DNA of 64,000 nt. Origin: Aureispira anguillae (GTDB lineage: Bacteria; Bacteroidota; Bacteroidia; Chitinophagales; Saprospiraceae). The translations under genes and the position numbers were made by a program. The notes under the pieces are model-generated. The model was not told where the DNA came from. It did not search any database and worked only from the letters and a program-made list of their open reading frames with translations. Numbering within the stretch: the stretch's first letter is position 1; the number at the start of each line of letters is the position of its first letter. This document shows, piece after piece, positions 6,831-29,794 of this stretch. Location: positions 2,713,716-2,777,715 of the forward strand of contig NZ_AP026867.1 in the NCBI RefSeq assembly GCF_026000115.1. Direction: 5' to 3'.

Positions 6831-7177
6831 TCCTTATCTAATTAGGGGTTTAAAATTTATCAGCAACTTTGTGGCTTTTGGGGAACGAAAAAGGCAAAAT
6901 TGTTGTTGTCCCCTCATCTATATTGTTCATATACTACAAAATTCAACCTATTATATCTTTTCACGTTTATAATAAACTAAAAAGATTTAAGTAATCGTTC
7001 ACAATAATTTACAGGAAAAAATAAATCTTTTTGCACTACTCTTCCTCTAAAAGTTTTGTTTTAGCTCGCTAAAACTTCAACTTTTTTCTTTGATTAGCAC
7101 TAAAAATAATTATTTTTTTTACCTATACTTTTTTATGCCCGCTTACTTACCTATGAAAAACTAAATTCAAACCCATT

Positions 7178-15410: not shown

Positions 15411-18400
15411 TTATTTTCCATCTACTTGACGCAACAACTCTTTAACGGCTGCCTCTATTTGCTGGTCTTCCCCATTGGTAACTCGAGCAGGATCATTGGC
15501 AACTTTGATGTCTGGCTCCAATTGAGTGTTCTCCATAAAAGCACCATCATTGCCAACCATTCCAACTTGTGGTATACCAAATACATAACCACCAGGCAAG
15601 CGCTCCCACCAAACTGCCGTTCCTGTTCCAGGCACAGGCATTCCGATCAATTTACCTACATTTAGTGCTTTATAAACATAAGGAAAAATATGCGCATCCG
15701 AATAATTGCCTTCGCTCATCAAAACACAAGAAGGTTTGTACCATTTAAACATTGGTTCTCTACCAATATCTTGCCCACGAGGCTGAACTTTCATATAAAT
15801 TTTACCACTCAAAAAGGTCGCCAAATCATCGTGCAGCCAGCCGCCACCATTAAAACGAGTATCAACAATAACCGCATCCATACCAGCATTTCTGCCCAAT
15901 ACTTCCTCATAAACTGTTTTATAACTTCCTGTATTCATGCCACGAACATGCACATAACCAATACGACCATTAGAAGCTTTTTCGGCAATTGCTCTACAAT
16001 TCTCAACCCAACGCTTATAACGAAGATTAAACTCTGCACCACGGCTAATTGGTTTAATGGTTTCTTCCCAACGTTCGTTGGTTGCAGGATCGAACAAAGT
16101 GACCAAAGTATATTTTCTTGCTTTTCGATTGAGTAAAGGATAAAAATTCATTTCAGGTAAAATTTCTACCCCATCAATTTTTTCAATGATTACCCCAGCT
16201 TTTGCTTTAGAAGCTTTTTTATCGAAAGGTCCTTTTTTCATGACTTCAGCAATCAACAAACCTTTTCCAGTATGTGTTTCATCATAAAAAACACCTAAGC
16301 TTGCTGTAGCATCAGCACCTGCTTGATAAGGAGAACGATAGCGACAACCCGTATGAGAAGCATTTAACTCTCCCAATAATTCACTCATCATTTCAGCAAA
16401 ATCAAATCCATTGTTGATGTGGGGTAAAAAGCGAGCGTATTCTTTTTTGTAAAAATCCCAGTCCACGCCGTGCAAATCTTCTTTGTAGAATTTTTTCACG
16501 ACTTGTCTCCAAGCATGTTCAAATAAATAGGCACGTTCCTCTCCTTCTTTCAACAACATTTCACCTTGGATGTTAATTGACTTTTTCTTTTTAGTTGCCA
16601 ATTCAATACGAGCTATTTTCCCTGCATTGACCACAAAAAGGTATTTTCCATCCTTAGACAATTCCATTCCGCCACCTCTAGCACCTAATTTCATCAAGAT
16701 TTTTGTTTCTCTTGTTCTCAAATTAGTCTCCCAAAGATCAAATCCTTTTTCAAAACGAGTCATGTAATACAACTTCTCGCCCTCTTTAGAAACAATCGCT
16801 CCCATGATAGAAGAAGAGTGGATTGTCAATCGTTTTTTACGATCATAAATTCCATCAAAATCAATGGTCATAGGTTCTAACTTAATTTTCTCTTTGTCTT
16901 TGTCCGCTTTTTCCTTCTCTTTATCTTCCTTCTCGTCTTTGTCTTCTTTTTTGTCCTCTTTTTTCTTCTTCTTATCCTCTTTTTCTCGCTCTTTTAACAA
17001 TGCAAATTCTTCTTTCGTTAGATTAAAACGATCCCAACCTTCTTCGGTTAGAAACATACCATAAATATCAGACTGTCCTCCCCAGCTTGCTTGAGCTTTC
17101 ATTCCATCACGTCCAGAAGCCCAGATAATCATTTTGCCGTTCATAGCAAATTTGGGCGCATAATCCCCATAACCGCTTCTTGTTAAATTAATAACAGACT
17201 CCTTGCCATCTGCCTTGATTAAGCCCACCTCTTCAATCCACTGCTGAGGTTGCAAAAAGGTCACTAAAAACCATTTTCCATCTGGAGACCAAGAGTAAGT
17301 TTGATCGCCATCTTGATAAGAATAGTTTTTGTCTCCTGCTAGAATTTCTCTAACCTTTTTGGATTCGAGATTAATGACTTTTAATGCGGTACGTTCTTCC
17401 AAGAATGCAACTTCTTTTCCATCTGGAGAAAAAGCAGGTTGAAAAGTTTCGTTTTTACTTTCTAGAATGGCTTCTTCTTTTAAAATCGTAGCATTAAAAA
17501 AATACTTCTCTTCTTCCCTAGCTAATTTGGTTTGATATAAATTCCAACTTCCATTTCGTTCGGCAGCATATAGGATAGCACGCCCATCTGGGCTAAAACT
17601 AGCTGTGCGTTCTCTTTCTGGTGTATTGGTAATTCTTTTGGTCATGCCACTTTCTACAGAAGTAACAAACACTTCCCCTCTATTAACAAAAACAATCTCT
17701 TTTCCATTAGGAGATACATCCATTTCTTGCGCCGACTTCACAGCAATTGTTCGTTCTGCATTGTAACGATCATCTGCAATAATAGTGATGGCAACTTTTT
17801 TAGGTTTTCCTCCATCTGTAAGCGTGTAAATCTCTCCATTGTAATTAAAACACATCAGCCCAGTATTAGAAATCGAAAGATTTCGAACAGGGTGATTTTT
17901 TAATTGCGTAACTTTTCGAGTACTGCTCGTATTACTAAGATCTACAGCATGAACATTAAATGTTCCGCTGGCTTCACTCAAGTAAAACAATTCTTTTCCG
18001 TTGGGAGCAAAAACAGGGTTTCTGTCTTCACCATTAAAAGTAGTAATTTGTGTGTATTTTTTTGTGGTAACATTATAAGTCCAAAGATCACGAGTTACCG
18101 AAGAAGTATGGTGCTTTCTAAACTCATCTTCATACCCCTTTCTATCGTGATAAGCAATTGTTTTTCCATCTTTAGAATACTTGGCTTCGTCAGCAGGAAT
18201 GGTCAAAATTTGCGTTACACGTCCCCCTGTTACAGGAACTTGATACAATTCTTCCATACGCCCAGAAGGGAACATTCTGTTTTGAGCATTATCTAAACGC
18301 AAAGAACTAAACAAAACCCCTTTACTATCGGGTGTAAAATCAGAGGGATAGTCATTGGAAGAATGATAAGTTAAACGAGTTGGTTTCCCGCCCTCAGCAG

Positions 18401-18686
18401 ACATTACATACACATCAAAATTGCCATAACGGTTAGAAGCAAACGCTATTTGTTTGCCATCTTTTGACCACACTGGCTTGTAATCATGTGCTTGGTGCAA
18501 GGTTAGAGCCCTAGCGGTTCCCCCTTGACTGGGTACTTTGTACAAGTCACCTTTGTAACTAAATACAATTTCTTTCCCATCTGGGGAAATGGCAGAATAG
18601 CGCATCCACAATGGCGTATTCTGTGCTGATAATTGAGTTATAGCTAAAAGCAAGCAGCTTGTTAAGCATAGTTTCCAATTCATCAT
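15411..18686 (-). CDS. tricorn-protease-like periplasmic protease. It has beta-propeller/TolB-like repeats plus a C-terminal S41 peptidase domain.
   Basis: The N-terminal signal is followed by repeated PDGK..IAF/DIY propeller blades. The C-terminal S41 block reads GYVHVRGM...IVDTRFNGGGW...MSEGNYSDAHIF. The protein is 1091 aa and contains a KE/KD-rich insertion. Confidence 0.8.
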   Translation of the reverse strand: MMNWKLCLTSCLLLAITQLSAQNTPLWMRYSAISPDGKEIVFSYKGDLYKVPSQGGTARALTLHQAHDYKPVWSKDGKQIAFASNRYGNFDVYVMSAEGGKPTRLTYHSSNDYPSDFTPDSKGVLFSSLRLDNAQNRMFPSGRMEELYQVPVTGGRVTQILTIPADEAKYSKDGKTIAYHDRKGYEDEFRKHHTSSVTRDLWTYNVTTKKYTQITTFNGEDRNPVFAPNGKELFYLSEASGTFNVHAVDLSNTSSTRKVTQLKNHPVRNLSISNTGLMCFNYNGEIYTLTDGGKPKKVAITIIADDRYNAERTIAVKSAQEMDVSPNGKEIVFVNRGEVFVTSVESGMTKRITNTPERERTASFSPDGRAILYAAERNGSWNLYQTKLAREEEKYFFNATILKEEAILESKNETFQPAFSPDGKEVAFLEERTALKVINLESKKVREILAGDKNYSYQDGDQTYSWSPDGKWFLVTFLQPQQWIEEVGLIKADGKESVINLTRSGYGDYAPKFAMNGKMIIWASGRDGMKAQASWGGQSDIYGMFLTEEGWDRFNLTKEEFALLKEREKEDKKKKKEDKKEDKDEKEDKEKEKADKDKEKIKLEPMTIDFDGIYDRKKRLTIHSSSIMGAIVSKEGEKLYYMTRFEKGFDLWETNLRTRETKILMKLGARGGGMELSKDGKYLFVVNAGKIARIELATKKKKSINIQGEMLLKEGEERAYLFEHAWRQVVKKFYKEDLHGVDWDFYKKEYARFLPHINNGFDFAEMMSELLGELNASHTGCRYRSPYQAGADATASLGVFYDETHTGKGLLIAEVMKKGPFDKKASKAKAGVIIEKIDGVEILPEMNFYPLLNRKARKYTLVTLFDPATNERWEETIKPISRGAEFNLRYKRWVENCRAIAEKASNGRIGYVHVRGMNTGSYKTVYEEVLGRNAGMDAVIVDTRFNGGGWLHDDLATFLSGKIYMKVQPRGQDIGREPMFKWYKPSCVLMSEGNYSDAHIFPYVYKALNVGKLIGMPVPGTGTAVWWERLPGGYVFGIPQVGMVGNDGAFMENTQLEPDIKVANDPARVTNGEDQQIEAAVKELLRQVDGK

Positions 18687-18720
18687 AATTTGAGCGTTAT
18701 TTTTGGTTAATAGTTTGGAT

Positions 18721-18986
18721 CTGAGTACAGGACAAAACAGGTAAAGGATACTTATAAAGTACAGTTTAAACTAAAACTATGTTTCGATCTTAGATGCTAG
18801 ATCGCTTTGCTTTTAGATTCTAGACCCTATAACAGCCTAATAGGGTCTAGATATCTAAACGTATGAATGTAATGATCGAGCAGGCTTGATGTAATACATC
18901 AACGGTATAGCTTGATCTAATATCTGAAAAATAGTTCCATTAATCCCTTACTTTATTTAAGTCCAATTGTTTTGTCCTGTACTCAG
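18721..18986. mobile_element. 266-bp MITE-like non-autonomous element. It has 19-bp perfect terminal inverted repeats and a flanking 9-bp direct repeat (agtttggat).
   Basis: TIR-L ctgagtacaggacaaaaca (18721-18739) is the exact reverse complement of 18968-18986. agtttggat lies at 18712-18720 and again at 18987-18995. Internal nested palindromes are present. No ORF. Confidence 0.5.
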
Positions 18987-19352
18987 AGTTTGGATAAAAA
19001 GACAAAACAACTGTGCATTCAACAAACAATTGCTCAATAGAAAGTTTTTGGTTTTCTAAAAAAGTGTCTCAAAATGCTTCCATTGCAAGTTAAAAAATAT
19101 CTAGTACAATAAAATGTTTGTTTAGGTCAGTTCTTCCATTTATCAGACGAACGGTACATTCCTTACGATTAAGGAAAGTAAAACAAAAAGAGATCTATGG
19201 AATAAAAGACGATTTATGACTAGCAGCTCATCGAATTTAATGAAATAGGCAACTAAAAAGAACCTTTGCTTTCGCACTTCCACAAATAATTGTATTTTTG
19301 CAGCAACTTTTGGCTTAAAAGAATTGCTAACATTTAATTAATTAAGAATAAC

Positions 19353-20456
19353 ATGGCATTAAAATGTGGAATTGTTGGGCTTCCTAATGTTGGAAAATCA
19401 ACGCTTTTCAATGCACTTTCCTCTGCTAAAGCTTTGGCAGCGAACTATCCTTTTGCAACTAAAGAACCTAATATCGGAACCATTACTGTTCCTGATAATA
19501 GATTGACCGAATTAGAGGCTATTATCAACCCTCAAAAGGTAGTTCCTACAACAATTGATATTGTAGATATTGCAGGTTTGATTCGTGGAGCGAGCAAGGG
19601 AGAAGGATTAGGAAATCAATTTTTGGGGAATATTCGTGAAGTAAATGCAATTGTACATGTTGTTCGTTGTTTTGAAGATGGCAATATTGTCCATGTTGAT
19701 GGTGCTGTAGATCCTGTTCGAGATAAAGAAACCATTGATTTGGAACTAATTTTCAAGGATATGGAAACCATTGAAAAGCAGATTCAGAAGCAAAAGAAAA
19801 TGGCTAAAGGAGGAGACAAAGCGCTACTTAAATTGGTCACTATATTTGAGAATTTATTGCAGCATTTGGAAGATGGAAAACCTGCTCGTAGTTTTGATGA
19901 TTATGAAACAGAAGAAGCAGAAATTATTGTTCGTCAACTACAATTACTAACTGCTAAACCAATCATCTATGTTTGTAATGTAGATGAAGATTCTGTGGTA
20001 AACGGAAACGAACATACAGCTGCCTTTAGAGAGGCTGTAAAAGATGAAAATGCTGAAATCATATTGGTTAGTGCTGCTATTGAAGCGGATATTGCCGAAT
20101 TGGATACCTACGAAGAACGCATGGAATTTTTATCTGATTTGGGACTAAAAGAACCAGGTGTTAACAAGTTGATTCATGCTTGTTATAATATCTTGAATTT
20201 AATTACTTACTTCACTGCTGGTGTAAAGGAAGTTAGAGCTTGGACAATTACCGTTGGAACAAAGGCTCCTGGCGCAGCAGGGGTTATTCACTCTGATTTT
20301 GAACGAGGTTTTATCAAGTCCAAAACCGTTTCTTATAATGATTTTATTGCCAATAATGGCTGGAAAGGTGCTCAAGAAACAGGTACCTTGCGTCAAGAAG
20401 GCAAAGAATATGTTGTTCAAGATGGGGATTTGTTAGAGTTTATGTTTAATGTCTAA
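19353..20456 (+). CDS. ychF: ribosome-binding ATPase YchF (Obg-like GTPase family)
   Basis: The P-loop [22 protein letters not shown] is present, with G-domain motifs, a C-terminal TGS domain, and the typical 367 aa length. Confidence 0.9.
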
Positions 20457-22200: not shown

Positions 22201-23472
22201 ATGAAAATAGACAAGTTATACCTCAAAAATTTTAGAAATATTGAAGAAACTCATTATGAATTTCCAACTAATTTTACAGGTATTATTGGAATGAATGGTT
22301 CTGGGAAATCTACTATTTTACATGCACTTAGAGTAGCTGCTGGGGCTTATTTTATGGGTATACCTAACTCCCTAGCAAAAAACAGGCACATTTCTAAGGA
22401 TGAGGTTAGAATGACTAATAATAAAATCGAATTATTTCATCACCCTGTTATTGTTGAAGCAGAAGGACAATTTCCTGAGAATAACGCTCCTATTACTTGG
22501 CGTAGAAGAATACTAAAAGAAGGAGGTAGTAATACATCTTCTGTAGAAGATGTTGGTGCGATTAGAAATCTAGGGAGTGTGAAATATAATAAAATGAAAC
22601 GAGAGGGAACAGATGAACTTGATTTACCTGTAATCGCATATTTTGGAACGAATAGGGTATTTGGATCAGCAAGAAAACGGCAAAAAGCGAGAACTGGTCG
22701 TCAAATATTTAAAGAAGGGTACTACGATTGGCTAGATATGCGTTCATCTACCTATCAATATGCCCAGTGGTTGACAAGCTATGATGCCTTAGTAAAAAAT
22801 GGGAAAGAGTATTCTGAATCAAAGGAAACATTCTTTCAAACGATTAAAACAGCTTGCCCCTATGTTACAGACGTTGATTTTATTAGTGATCGTTTGTGGT
22901 TGCGTACTCAAATGAAGAGTCAAATCTCTGATTTACTCCCCTTGGAATTAAAAAGTGATGGGATTATTACTTTTGTTCAAATGATTGCAGAACTAGCCTA
23001 CCGCTGTATTATTTTAAATGGTTACCTAAAAGAAAAAGCCATTCTACAATCTAAAGGGATTGTCTTAATTGATGAAATTGATTTGCATTTGCATCCCAAA
23101 TGGCAAGAACATGTTGTAAAAGATCTAAAAAAGGCTTTTCCTAATATTCAATTTATTGTTACAACTCATTCTCCCATAATTGTACAAAGCTTGAAAGCTA
23201 ATGAATTAATTAATTTGGATTCGATAGCAGATGTCAATCCCAGCGACTTAACTTTAGGGGAAGTTGTTACTCACATCATGGGAAAAGACAGTGAACATAG
23301 TGAATCTAGTAATCAACAAGAACAATTAAGCAAAGAATATCTAACCCTCTTAAAACATCATTCTCTAGATGCTATTTCTGAACATTTAAATCAGATTGAG
23401 TTTAAGATTATAGATCCTTCTGTGAGGGCATTCTTAAAAATGCAGCGATTAGAAAAAAGAAGCAATAAATAA
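22201..23472 (+). CDS. AAA_15/AAA_21 (ABC-type) ATPase without a TOPRIM domain. It is PtuA-like (Septu defence system ATPase).
   Basis: Walker A is GMNGSGKST (aa 30-38). Walker B/D-loop is VLIDEIDLHLHP. The H-loop is TTHSP. Only about 100 aa follow the H-loop, so there is no nuclease domain. The gene is immediately followed by an HNH gene. Confidence 0.7.
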   Translation: MKIDKLYLKNFRNIEETHYEFPTNFTGIIGMNGSGKSTILHALRVAAGAYFMGIPNSLAKNRHISKDEVRMTNNKIELFHHPVIVEAEGQFPENNAPITWRRRILKEGGSNTSSVEDVGAIRNLGSVKYNKMKREGTDELDLPVIAYFGTNRVFGSARKRQKARTGRQIFKEGYYDWLDMRSSTYQYAQWLTSYDALVKNGKEYSESKETFFQTIKTACPYVTDVDFISDRLWLRTQMKSQISDLLPLELKSDGIITFVQMIAELAYRCIILNGYLKEKAILQSKGIVLIDEIDLHLHPKWQEHVVKDLKKAFPNIQFIVTTHSPIIVQSLKANELINLDSIADVNPSDLTLGEVVTHIMGKDSEHSESSNQQEQLSKEYLTLLKHHSLDAISEHLNQIEFKIIDPSVRAFLKMQRLEKRSNK

Positions 23473-23499: not shown

Positions 23500-24249
23500 A
23501 TGCGACCTATAGAAAGAGGAAACATCCCCAGAGATGATAATGATCAAATTATTACTGTTAGCAACCATCGTCAATGGAGAAAACATCTTATTGATAGAAT
23601 TGGAAAGTATTGTTCTTACTGCGAAATGGCTCTCTATGACAGCCCCCAAGTAGAGCATGTTATAGCACAAAACATAGATTCCTCTCGCAATCTTGATTGG
23701 GACAATTTGGTTCTAGCTTGTGGTCCTTGTAACAGAACAAAAAGTAATACTCCTTGTCCTCCTGAAACGCATTATTTACCTGATATTCACAATACATATC
23801 TAGCTTTTGGGCATTATCTAGGCAACAATACAAAAACTGGTGAGCCTGCTGCTTATATAACTACAAAATCATCATCCCATTCCCTAATGCAAATCGATAA
23901 GGCTATTAATACTATTAATTTATGTGGTCTTAACAAAGATACTAGTTCAGATGTGAGAACAGCATGTGACTTTAGGTGGAAATATCGCCTTGAAGCGATT
24001 ACTTCTGCCCTATTATGGAAACAAAAATGGGATGACTGGGGATCTCACAGTCATAGTCAAGATTTTATAAATCTATTATGTGATGCTGCTTTAGGAAAAG
24101 GCTTCTTTTCTATTTGGTTTTATATTTTTGAAGCAGAACCTAGTATTAAAAAATCTTTAATTGAAGCTTTCCCTAATACAGCATTAGATTGTTTTGATTC
24201 TAGTAATGACTACAACCCAGTGGCAAGAAATGCACCTGATGATATCTAA
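23500..24249 (+). CDS. HNH endonuclease. It is PtuB-like (Septu defence nuclease) with a ~170 aa C-terminal extension.
   Basis: The HNH motif is CSYCEMAL...VEHVIAQ...NLVLACGPCNRTKSN: a paired C-x2-C zinc knuckle, with His/Asn spaced as in HNH. The gene starts 27 bp after the ATPase stop on the same strand. Confidence 0.7.
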   Translation: MRPIERGNIPRDDNDQIITVSNHRQWRKHLIDRIGKYCSYCEMALYDSPQVEHVIAQNIDSSRNLDWDNLVLACGPCNRTKSNTPCPPETHYLPDIHNTYLAFGHYLGNNTKTGEPAAYITTKSSSHSLMQIDKAINTINLCGLNKDTSSDVRTACDFRWKYRLEAITSALLWKQKWDDWGSHSHSQDFINLLCDAALGKGFFSIWFYIFEAEPSIKKSLIEAFPNTALDCFDSSNDYNPVARNAPDDI

Positions 24250-28885: not shown

Positions 28886-29794
28886 CTAATATAATGCTGT
28901 ATTATTTCCTATAATTTGAAAAAAGAACCGAGCAGGACGTATTTCTTGCCCTTCTTGATATAAGTATTGTTCACCATTTAAATCAATCATAGGAATATGA
29001 GGATCTGTCAATAAAAACGAATCGTGAATCAGTTTGTTTTGAAATGTGTTTCTAATTTGATCGGCATCAATACCTATAGAAGCTCCTAAGTATTGCCCGT
29101 ATCCTAATGATTGTTCTACTTGAACGGCTAAAACGCCTGCACTATTGGCTTGATATAATACTCCATCCATCAAACGATAGCCATATTTTGCGGGAAATTG
29201 CTTTGACTTCATGGTTTTACTTTTTGGTCCATAGGGATCTGCTGTCCAAGCAATATTAACTAGTCCTATCTGTGTATTTTTTATTCTATAATAAAGCCCC
29301 ATTGCACCTGTTCGGTGTTTGTCCTCTTGCAAAAATGCCAGAAAGTCATTTTCCATCAATAAGCTAAATCCATAAATTCCAAACCCAAAGGTTCCTGTCA
29401 ATTGAGAAGTTTTGACGTTATCCAAATAAAAATTGTAACTATATCCTATTGAATAAGGGCGACTAGTTTGGTTACTCACTTCATTGATAAATGGACTATA
29501 ATAGCTGGAATCCTTTATGCCAAAAGTAGCAACAAGCCCCAAACGTAGTTGTCCCTCCCAAGAAGGGATTCCCATAGGAAAGGTGCGAGCATTGTAATAG
29601 GCACTAAACTGAACATTCGTTTGAATATGTTCATAATGATAAAACAACTTGGCAATAAGCCCAATTCGATTAAAATGACTCCCTAAGTTAAACGATAAAC
29701 CAATCTGCCCCCCAAAGCCCTCCGCAAAATTTAATTGAGCGGTTGTTATAGTACTCGTAAAGCAAATTGTAAGCAATAAAAAAAACTGTTTCAT
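28886..29794 (-). CDS. hypothetical secreted/outer-membrane protein
   Basis: A signal peptide is present. The protein is Gly/Tyr-rich with a beta-strand pattern. Confidence 0.45.
   Translation of the reverse strand: MKQFFLLLTICFTSTITTAQLNFAEGFGGQIGLSFNLGSHFNRIGLIAKLFYHYEHIQTNVQFSAYYNARTFPMGIPSWEGQLRLGLVATFGIKDSSYYSPFINEVSNQTSRPYSIGYSYNFYLDNVKTSQLTGTFGFGIYGFSLLMENDFLAFLQEDKHRTGAMGLYYRIKNTQIGLVNIAWTADPYGPKSKTMKSKQFPAKYGYRLMDGVLYQANSAGVLAVQVEQSLGYGQYLGASIGIDADQIRNTFQNKLIHDSFLLTDPHIPMIDLNGEQYLYQEGQEIRPARFFFQIIGNNTALY

Follow-up and report, generated by a model that had tools for sequence, protein, structure and literature searches.

A 266-bp MITE-like element with the ends of IS4-family insertion sequences in the spacer between ychF and a tricorn-type protease gene of Aureispira anguillae

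The spacer described here separates two divergently oriented genes in a 64-kb stretch of Aureispira anguillae DNA, which was analysed over its whole length and is called the window below. To its left, a tricorn-type S41 protease of 1091 aa is encoded on the minus strand (15411-18686; Pfam PD40, Tricorn_C1 and Peptidase_S41). To its right, the plus strand carries ychF, which encodes a protein of 367 aa with MMR_HSR1 and YchF-GTPase_C domains (19353-20456). A sequence-only reading of this region, made without database searches, had named the two genes as tricorn protease and ychF, and the Pfam domains show both names to be correct. The same reading described a divergent spacer of 660 bp; the divergent arrangement holds, but the spacer measures 666 nt (18687-19352).

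Two other features of the window are recorded here. A Septu anti-phage pair lies 1.7 kb beyond ychF and a thioredoxin gene, and comprises a PtuA ATPase (22201-23472, plus strand; PADLOC PDLC00278, 334 bits) followed by PtuB/HNH (23500-24249, plus strand; PDLC00315, 190 bits). In the related locus L027, other genes adjoin the thioredoxin gene, and the Septu pair therefore looks accessory. Additionally, a 302-aa protein with a match to the Pfam toxin domain Ntox23 (28886-29794, minus strand) is encoded next to a gene of the HisKA_2/HWE histidine-kinase-like type.

Inside the ychF-tricorn spacer lies an element of 266 bp, a size that fits bacterial MITEs (tens to a few hundred bp). It is framed by two copies of the 9-bp direct repeat AGTTTGGAT (18712-18720 and 18987-18995), read directly from the sequence, and 9 bp is the rule of the family for a target-site duplication (TSD). 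The left terminal inverted repeat (TIR), CTGAGTACAGGACAAAACA, occupies 18721-18739 on the plus strand and is identical to the left inverted repeat (IRL) of IS4-family insertion sequences (ISs) from other genomes. Inverted-repeat search and comparison with the family show that the right TIR (18968-18986, minus strand) is a perfect copy of this IRL-type 19-mer. The interior between them spans 18740-18967; like the TSD copies and the central palindrome, it is listed without a strand. Perfect 19-bp TIRs and abutting 9-bp duplications at these positions had been proposed from the sequence alone, and on re-reading and repeat search the TIRs are exact reverse complements, with a TSD copy touching each tip.

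The repeat search itself returned arms at 18720-18739 and 18968-18987 that are 100% complementary and 228 nt apart, the twentieth pair, T18720/A18987, overlapping the direct repeat. The correct parsing is a 19-bp TIR with a 9-bp TSD, because related elements share no conserved base before CTGAG. Both tips of the element begin with CTGAG, which fits the 5'-CT end criterion of the IS10 subgroup. When up to 3 mismatches were allowed, the TIR 19-mer matched only 2 sites in the 64-kb window, with 0.00 expected from 100 shuffles, and the TIR pair is the sole perfect inverted repeat of at least 18 nt in the window whose arms lie a few hundred bases apart. The 9-mer of the TSD is not rare by itself (4 matches in the window against 1.1 expected), and the chance of an identical 9-mer touching both TIR tips is about 4^-9. 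Both ends of the element are of the IRL variant, unlike those of the 24 other paired elements that we recovered, each of which combines an IRL-type end with an end of the right inverted repeat (IRR) type.

A further end-like sequence overlaps the right TSD. When read as a left end, TGGATAAAAAGACAAAACA (18991-19009) shares 13 of its 19 bases with the TIR, GACAAAACA among them. It could reflect chance in AT-rich DNA, a preference for end-like targets or a decayed older end.

The interior is non-coding, AT-rich and rich in hairpins, and it is unlike any IS or MITE that we recovered. The GC content is 33.8% for the 266-bp element and 32.5% for the interior. The element had been described as lacking an open reading frame, and our search likewise found none of 20 aa or more within it. 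Its centre is marked by a perfect 12-bp palindrome with a 9-nt loop (18819-18851), identified by inverted-repeat search and by folding, whose arms TCTAGACCCTAT (18819-18830) and ATAGGGTCTAGA (18840-18851) form the core of a predicted 19-pair stem. The sequence-only reading had noticed this palindrome but placed it at about 18809-18850; its true position is about 10 bases further to the right. A terminator-like hairpin is also present at 18785-18804.

The element is predicted to fold with a free energy of -95.6 kcal/mol and a z score of -9.9, and the opposite strand reaches -9.8; for the interior by itself, the z scores are -5.8 on the plus strand and -4.9 on the minus strand. A fold that is equally strong on both strands reflects palindromy of the DNA itself, which many MITEs show, and gives no pointer to a strand-specific RNA. 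Rfam returned only noise, both for the region at permissive E values (up to 10) and for the whole window at gathering thresholds. The suggestion that the element may form a long structured RNA is thus not supported, since it matches no Rfam family and its strong fold is the symmetrical one of a DNA palindrome.

We also considered the interior as a decayed transposase gene and rejected this candidate: its best blastx score, 21 bits (D1 region, C-terminus), was equalled by 125 of 300 shuffles in which the TIRs were held fixed. No remnant of a parent IS was detected in the interior by blastx against the transposase family, and none of the 21 GTDB loci that bear the TIR contains a sequence similar to it. 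We see no sign that the element arose as a deletion derivative. MITEs whose ends were recruited onto unrelated DNA have been termed 'type II' (PMC6382973), and in these terms the element looks like a type II MITE.

The ends, in contrast to the interior, are found well beyond this genome. A scan for the exact 19-mer in GTDB genomes, one per species, gave 21 loci, compared with about 4 expected by chance. These loci sit in 5 assemblies, namely 3 Saprospiraceae MAGs, the complete Cyclobacteriaceae chromosome OZ244400.1 and 1 cyanobacterial MAG. All but one of them (20 of 21, the last being cut by a contig end) have an inverted partner at a distance of 59-1151 bp; this right end differs slightly and is usually the IRR variant CTAAGTACAGGACAAAAGT. 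The exact 19-mer also occurs in 24 metagenome loci. Between the window element and every element that shares its TIR, similarity ends exactly after nucleotide 19, which identifies the 19 bp as the common functional module.

Several of these elements are complete ISs, and thus the search for ISs with matching TIRs that had been proposed for this element gave a positive answer: in other genomes, transposase-encoding ISs of 1151-1153 bp have the identical 19-mer as their IRL. Chromosome OZ244400.1 carries a 1151-bp IS in 6 copies that differ by 0-1 nt, each with a perfect 9-bp TSD. Its 352-aa protein matches the NCBIfam model NF033591, 'IS4 family transposase', with 208 bits (cutoff 152), as well as PF01609, and its stretch YQQRWKIELLFGCLK represents the Y(2)R(3)E(6)K signature. 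When 14 members, among them an ISAba1-family transposase, were aligned, D93, D161, E257, Y250, R253 and K264 proved invariant, and the motif is spaced as Y250-R253-E257-K264. A second IS of 1153 bp, on contig L042 of ERZ1066127, has an identical IRL 19-mer and, within a single metagenome study, is found with 17 or more different insertion flanks. Taken as a clade, the ISs of 1151-1153 bp encode IS4-family DDE transposases of 352-353 aa.

The transposases of this clade have diverged much further than the ends. Over the whole protein, those of the L006 and L042 ISs are only about 34% identical, whereas the 19 nt of their left ends are identical. The core GTACAGGACAAAA is common to every clade member examined, in Bacteroidota and in Cyanobacteria alike. 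Compared with the divergence of the transposases, the conservation of the ends is unusually strong.

The right inverted repeat of the clade is itself coding. TTG TCC TGT ACT TAG encodes LSCT and a stop at the C-terminus of the transposase (L006 7219-7236; also L042, L055 and L060), so the final three bases of the IS are the stop codon. The LSCT C-terminus is present in 12 of the 14 aligned family members. The element P0080/L059 ends in CACAG, and its open reading frame extends out of the element. Look-ups of P0080 and P0076 yielded only additional members of the family, which came from other samples.

The clade is also present in Saprospiraceae, the family of Aureispira. A tblastn search of plasmids gave its best match, at 46% identity, in Aureispira sp. 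CCB-E; the matching plasmid-borne protein is an IS4-family transposase, and the IS that encodes it has ends CTAAGTACAGGACAAAA. On this plasmid, NZ_CP133672.1, the first ~34 nt around the transposase start of the IS are repeated in front of it (L055 1380-1413 and 1491-1533), and a second GTCCTGTACTTAG follows its right end; this suggests a nested or rearranged insertion into another copy.

Short non-coding elements share these ends as well. MITEs with the same 19-mer at one end measure 59-156 bp in the 3 Saprospiraceae MAGs and 160-162 bp in cyanobacterial contigs. They make up at least 3 other MITE families: one of 132-133 bp and one of 156 bp in Saprospiraceae, with shorter forms of 79 and 59 bp, and one of 160-162 bp in cyanobacteria. 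The Saprospiraceae loci are L004-L023 (CALDSS01, CALLVG01 and CALCJP01) and the cyanobacterial ones are L012, L051 and L053, all with 9-bp TSDs. No full-length IS was recovered from the MITE-bearing Saprospiraceae MAGs. These MITEs resemble the window element in carrying the 19-mer at one end, in their 9-bp TSDs and in lacking coding capacity. They depart from it in three ways: the opposite end is of the IRR type (CTAAGTACAGGACAAAAGT or a similar sequence), the interior bears no relation to that of the window element, and the length is roughly half of 266 bp or less. A perfect 9-bp TSD is present in 19 of all 24 other paired elements that have these ends, and 3 more have a TSD with one mismatch; the other rows of the tally come from one contig that was assembled across a repeat and from a rearranged copy on a plasmid, which was counted at two candidate left ends.

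We then compared the spacer with its counterparts in relatives. The closest named tricorn homologues are Aureispira MAG proteins with 67-69% identity. The loci examined were L027, L028, L057 and L058, a set in which tricorn identities are 85, 83, 82 and 80%. L027 keeps the divergent ychF/tricorn order, with a spacer of 362 nt compared with 666 nt here. Blocks on the ychF side are conserved in the relatives, namely TGCAAGTTAAAAAATATCTA (19084-19103) and the -7-like TATTTTTG (19293-19300), and this conservation indicates that the spacer region is orthologous. Neither the element nor any TIR-like sequence with up to 6 mismatches is present in the ychF/tricorn spacer of L027, L028, L057 or L058. 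Absence from orthologous spacers argues that the element is not a conserved regulatory hairpin. The check for empty sites in relatives thus succeeded in one respect, as the element is missing from 4 of 4 spacers, but it did not yield a base-precise empty site (..TTAATAGTTTGGATAAAAAGAC..), since the spacers of the four relatives are too diverged. A candidate empty site in L027, where TTTTGGAT lies near the equivalent place, is not claimed because the alignment is ambiguous.

TGCAAGTTAAAAAATATCTA deserves mention for its own sake. It is almost invariant in the otherwise diverged spacers of L027, L057 and L028, and it overlaps a sigma-70-like match, TTGCAA-16-TACAAT. From this pattern of conservation, it may be a common regulatory site or a promoter of ychF or of the protease gene.

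Within the species, the insertion is shared. Its junctions were found in three samples: DRR408736, from the same strain, whose contigs match the window at 100% identity across 23 kb, and the metagenomes SRR35212565 and SRR35212566, which are 99.4-99.6% identical. In all three, short-read contigs carry the flank plus 29 nt of the left end, or the flank plus 44 nt of the right end. Since independent short-read contigs carry the junctions, the insertion is not an assembly artefact and is common within the species. The element is thus present in 3 samples of the same species and absent from the spacers of 4 relatives.

The same contigs bear on copy number. The 64-kb window contains one copy of the element and only the 2 TIR matches, and no transposase gene of the clade. 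We found no further 266-bp copy among the TIR-bearing loci or, by blastn, in plasmids; a 23-mer specific to the left end was absent from the JGI metagenomes, and the TIR was absent from the viral contigs searched. Contig ends coincide in all three samples, at 18749 (29 nt in) and 18943 (44 nt in). The TIR (20 nt) is shorter than the k-mer of the Logan assembly, which we take to be 31. The recurrence of the same breakpoints in two independent studies is best explained by k-mers of the element that occur elsewhere in those genomes. These identical breaks in short-read assemblies suggest that the source strain may have more than one copy of the element.

Breaks of this kind are not specific to repeats. 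Contigs of DRR408736 end also at 7120 and 46367, in poly-T or AT-rich unique sequence. Because Logan contigs break at non-repeats too, a break by itself is weak evidence of repetition, and we do not treat contig breaks as proof of it.

The position of the element relative to the two genes is asymmetric. Its left end is 34 nt upstream of the ATG of the protease gene, and the insertion places 275 bp between this start codon and the sequence further upstream. A gap of 34 nt is too short for a promoter, so transcription of the protease gene either starts within the element or traverses its hairpin-rich sequence. On the other side, the ATG of ychF is 366 nt from the right end of the element, and the Bacteroidota-type -7 box TATTTTTG (19293-19300) belongs to the block that is conserved among relatives. 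This promoter-like block of ychF, 300 nt past the right tip, was probably left untouched by the insertion. On the protease strand, no Bacteroidota-type -7 box (TAnnTTTG) occurs anywhere in the element or the spacer, and a scan for sigma-70-type promoters found sites no more numerous than in shuffled sequence.

Taken together, these data make it highly probable that the element is a non-autonomous MITE of the IS4 family, IS10-subgroup-like, that inserted into the ychF-tricorn spacer, presumably after mobilisation in trans. A MITE had been proposed from its repeats, and the proposal is upheld by TIRs that match transposase-encoding ISs, a 9-bp TSD, the lack of coding sequence and the absence of the element from the spacers of relatives. 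In the process that we envisage, a DDE transposase of the clade would be supplied in trans and bind both 19-bp ends. The element would then be excised or copied and inserted at a 9-bp staggered cut in the spacer, and repair of the stagger would give the duplication of AGTTTGGAT. Hairpin cut-and-paste transposition is established for IS10 and IS50, and by analogy the chemistry would presumably be the same here.

Two other origins have to be weighed against insertion as a MITE. The element might be a relic formed in situ, in which a full-length IS of the clade inserted with a 9-bp TSD and later had its interior deleted or replaced; the 266-bp element would then never have transposed as a MITE and might exist in one copy. 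Such a history would agree with our failure to find another 266-bp copy among the TIR loci, the JGI metagenomes or the plasmids, and the multi-copy status is deduced from Logan contigs, which end at non-repeats too. It fits poorly with an interior in which no transposase or UTR remnant is detectable. It is also at odds with the two ends, both of the IRL variant, since the full-length ISs that we recovered all have a different right end, an IRR in which the C-terminus of the transposase is encoded, and simple internal deletion of such an IS cannot yield the element. The contig breaks, which recur at the same positions in two independent studies (29 nt inside the left end and 44 nt inside the right), point the same way, as they fit k-mers located elsewhere in the genome. 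We regard an in-situ relic as improbable. Far less credible still is a conserved cis-regulatory hairpin or structured non-coding RNA of the ychF/tricorn region, a reading that takes the TIR for a functional stem and the direct repeat for chance. The very stable fold (-95.6 kcal/mol, z -9.9; interior z -5.8) and the terminator-like hairpin at 18785-18804 are what such a structure would offer, yet the opposite strand folds equally strongly, no Rfam family matches at E values up to 10, and transposase-encoding ISs in other phyla have the sequence of the stem as their end. Its absence from all 4 related spacers effectively refutes it.

A separate question is whether the MITE, once inserted, acquired a function. 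As an addition to the MITE reading, the element may have come to serve the tricorn-protease gene as its promoter or 5' leader and been kept for that role. Only 34 nt separate it from the protease ATG, which leaves no room for a promoter between, the insertion is common to strains that are 0.4-0.6% diverged, and outward-facing promoters have been documented in ISAba1 and MITEAba12 (PMC6382973). Against this, neither the element nor the spacer contains TAnnTTTG on the protease strand, sigma-70-type sites do not exceed those in shuffles, and strains so closely related would share the insertion without any selection. Exaptation is unlikely on balance. We hold a similarly low opinion of a joint reading, in which the protease gene would be driven or gated by the MITE, the 19-bp ends would perhaps stay constant across phyla through the locking of the IS right end by its coding LSCT-stop, and transposases of very distant kinship could, after horizontal transfer, mobilise one and the same MITE. 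If exaptation did occur, the native promoter or leader of the protease gene was replaced, and control would be exerted by an outward promoter or by a 5' leader of 266 nt that is rich in hairpins. For the host, the only plausible consequence is a change in transcription of the gene for the tricorn-type protease.

As a MITE, the element is an ordinary mobile-element insertion, neither surprising nor mechanistically novel, in an under-sampled lineage of Saprospiraceae. It is clean and well delimited, and it could seed a repeat family for this poorly sampled lineage. It also explains the breaks of short-read assemblies between ychF and the protease gene. The associated clade of compact IS4-family ISs of about 1.15 kb has 19-bp ends that are nearly invariant across two phyla and are used by at least 4 unrelated MITE interiors. 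This clade is therefore a useful natural system for studying how end recognition is conserved while transposases diverge.

Several known systems resemble the element or its partner ISs. The recognition ends of Tn5/IS50 are 19 bp long and start with CTGA, and insertion produces a 9-bp TSD. The element resembles them in its 19-bp end with a CTGA start, its 9-bp TSD and the IS4-family chemistry, a likeness that provides an analogy of mechanism and does not imply membership. A search of PDB with the profile of the partner transposases touched the YREK region of Tn5 transposase at no better than E = 0.22, a match that is not counted as evidence.

The IS10 subgroup of the IS4 family is characterized by 5'-CT ends, a complete YREK motif, 9-bp repeats and a typical length of 1200-1350 bp (PMC2266710, De Palmenaer et al. 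2008). The partner ISs have the CT ends, the 9-bp repeats and the complete Y(2)R(3)E(6)K motif, while their lengths of 1151, 1153 and 1158 bp fall slightly under the typical range, which is a soft criterion. By ends, motif and TSD length, the partner ISs and their ends can thus be described as IS10-subgroup-like. Judged by these sequence comparisons, ISAba1 is the nearest named relative of the end clade. In a tblastn search of plasmids, ISAba1-family transposases were about 37% identical to that of the partner IS, and an ISAba1-family copy of 1181 bp has ends CTCTGTACACGACAAA, in which 13 of 16 bases agree with the TIR described here, and a 9-bp TSD, TATAATAAT. The right end of the partner ISs consists of the last transposase codons (LSCT and stop), whereas it is built otherwise in the ISAba1-family copy. 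Unlike members of the IS10 subgroup and ISAba1, the window element has no transposase.

The closest parallel among MITEs is MITEAba12 of Acinetobacter, an element of 113 bp with 16-bp TIRs and a 9-bp TSD, which is mobilised by the co-resident ISAba12 (PMC6382973). MITEAba12 has been observed to transpose, shares its host with its parent and has about 90 catalogued copies, whereas the window element is known from sequence. The two also differ in TIR sequence, parent IS and host phylum, and the window element is longer (266 bp), with perfect TIRs. What they have in common is the overall design: both are small, AT-rich and non-coding, both have TIRs that match those of an IS, and both are flanked by a 9-bp TSD and sited beside genes.
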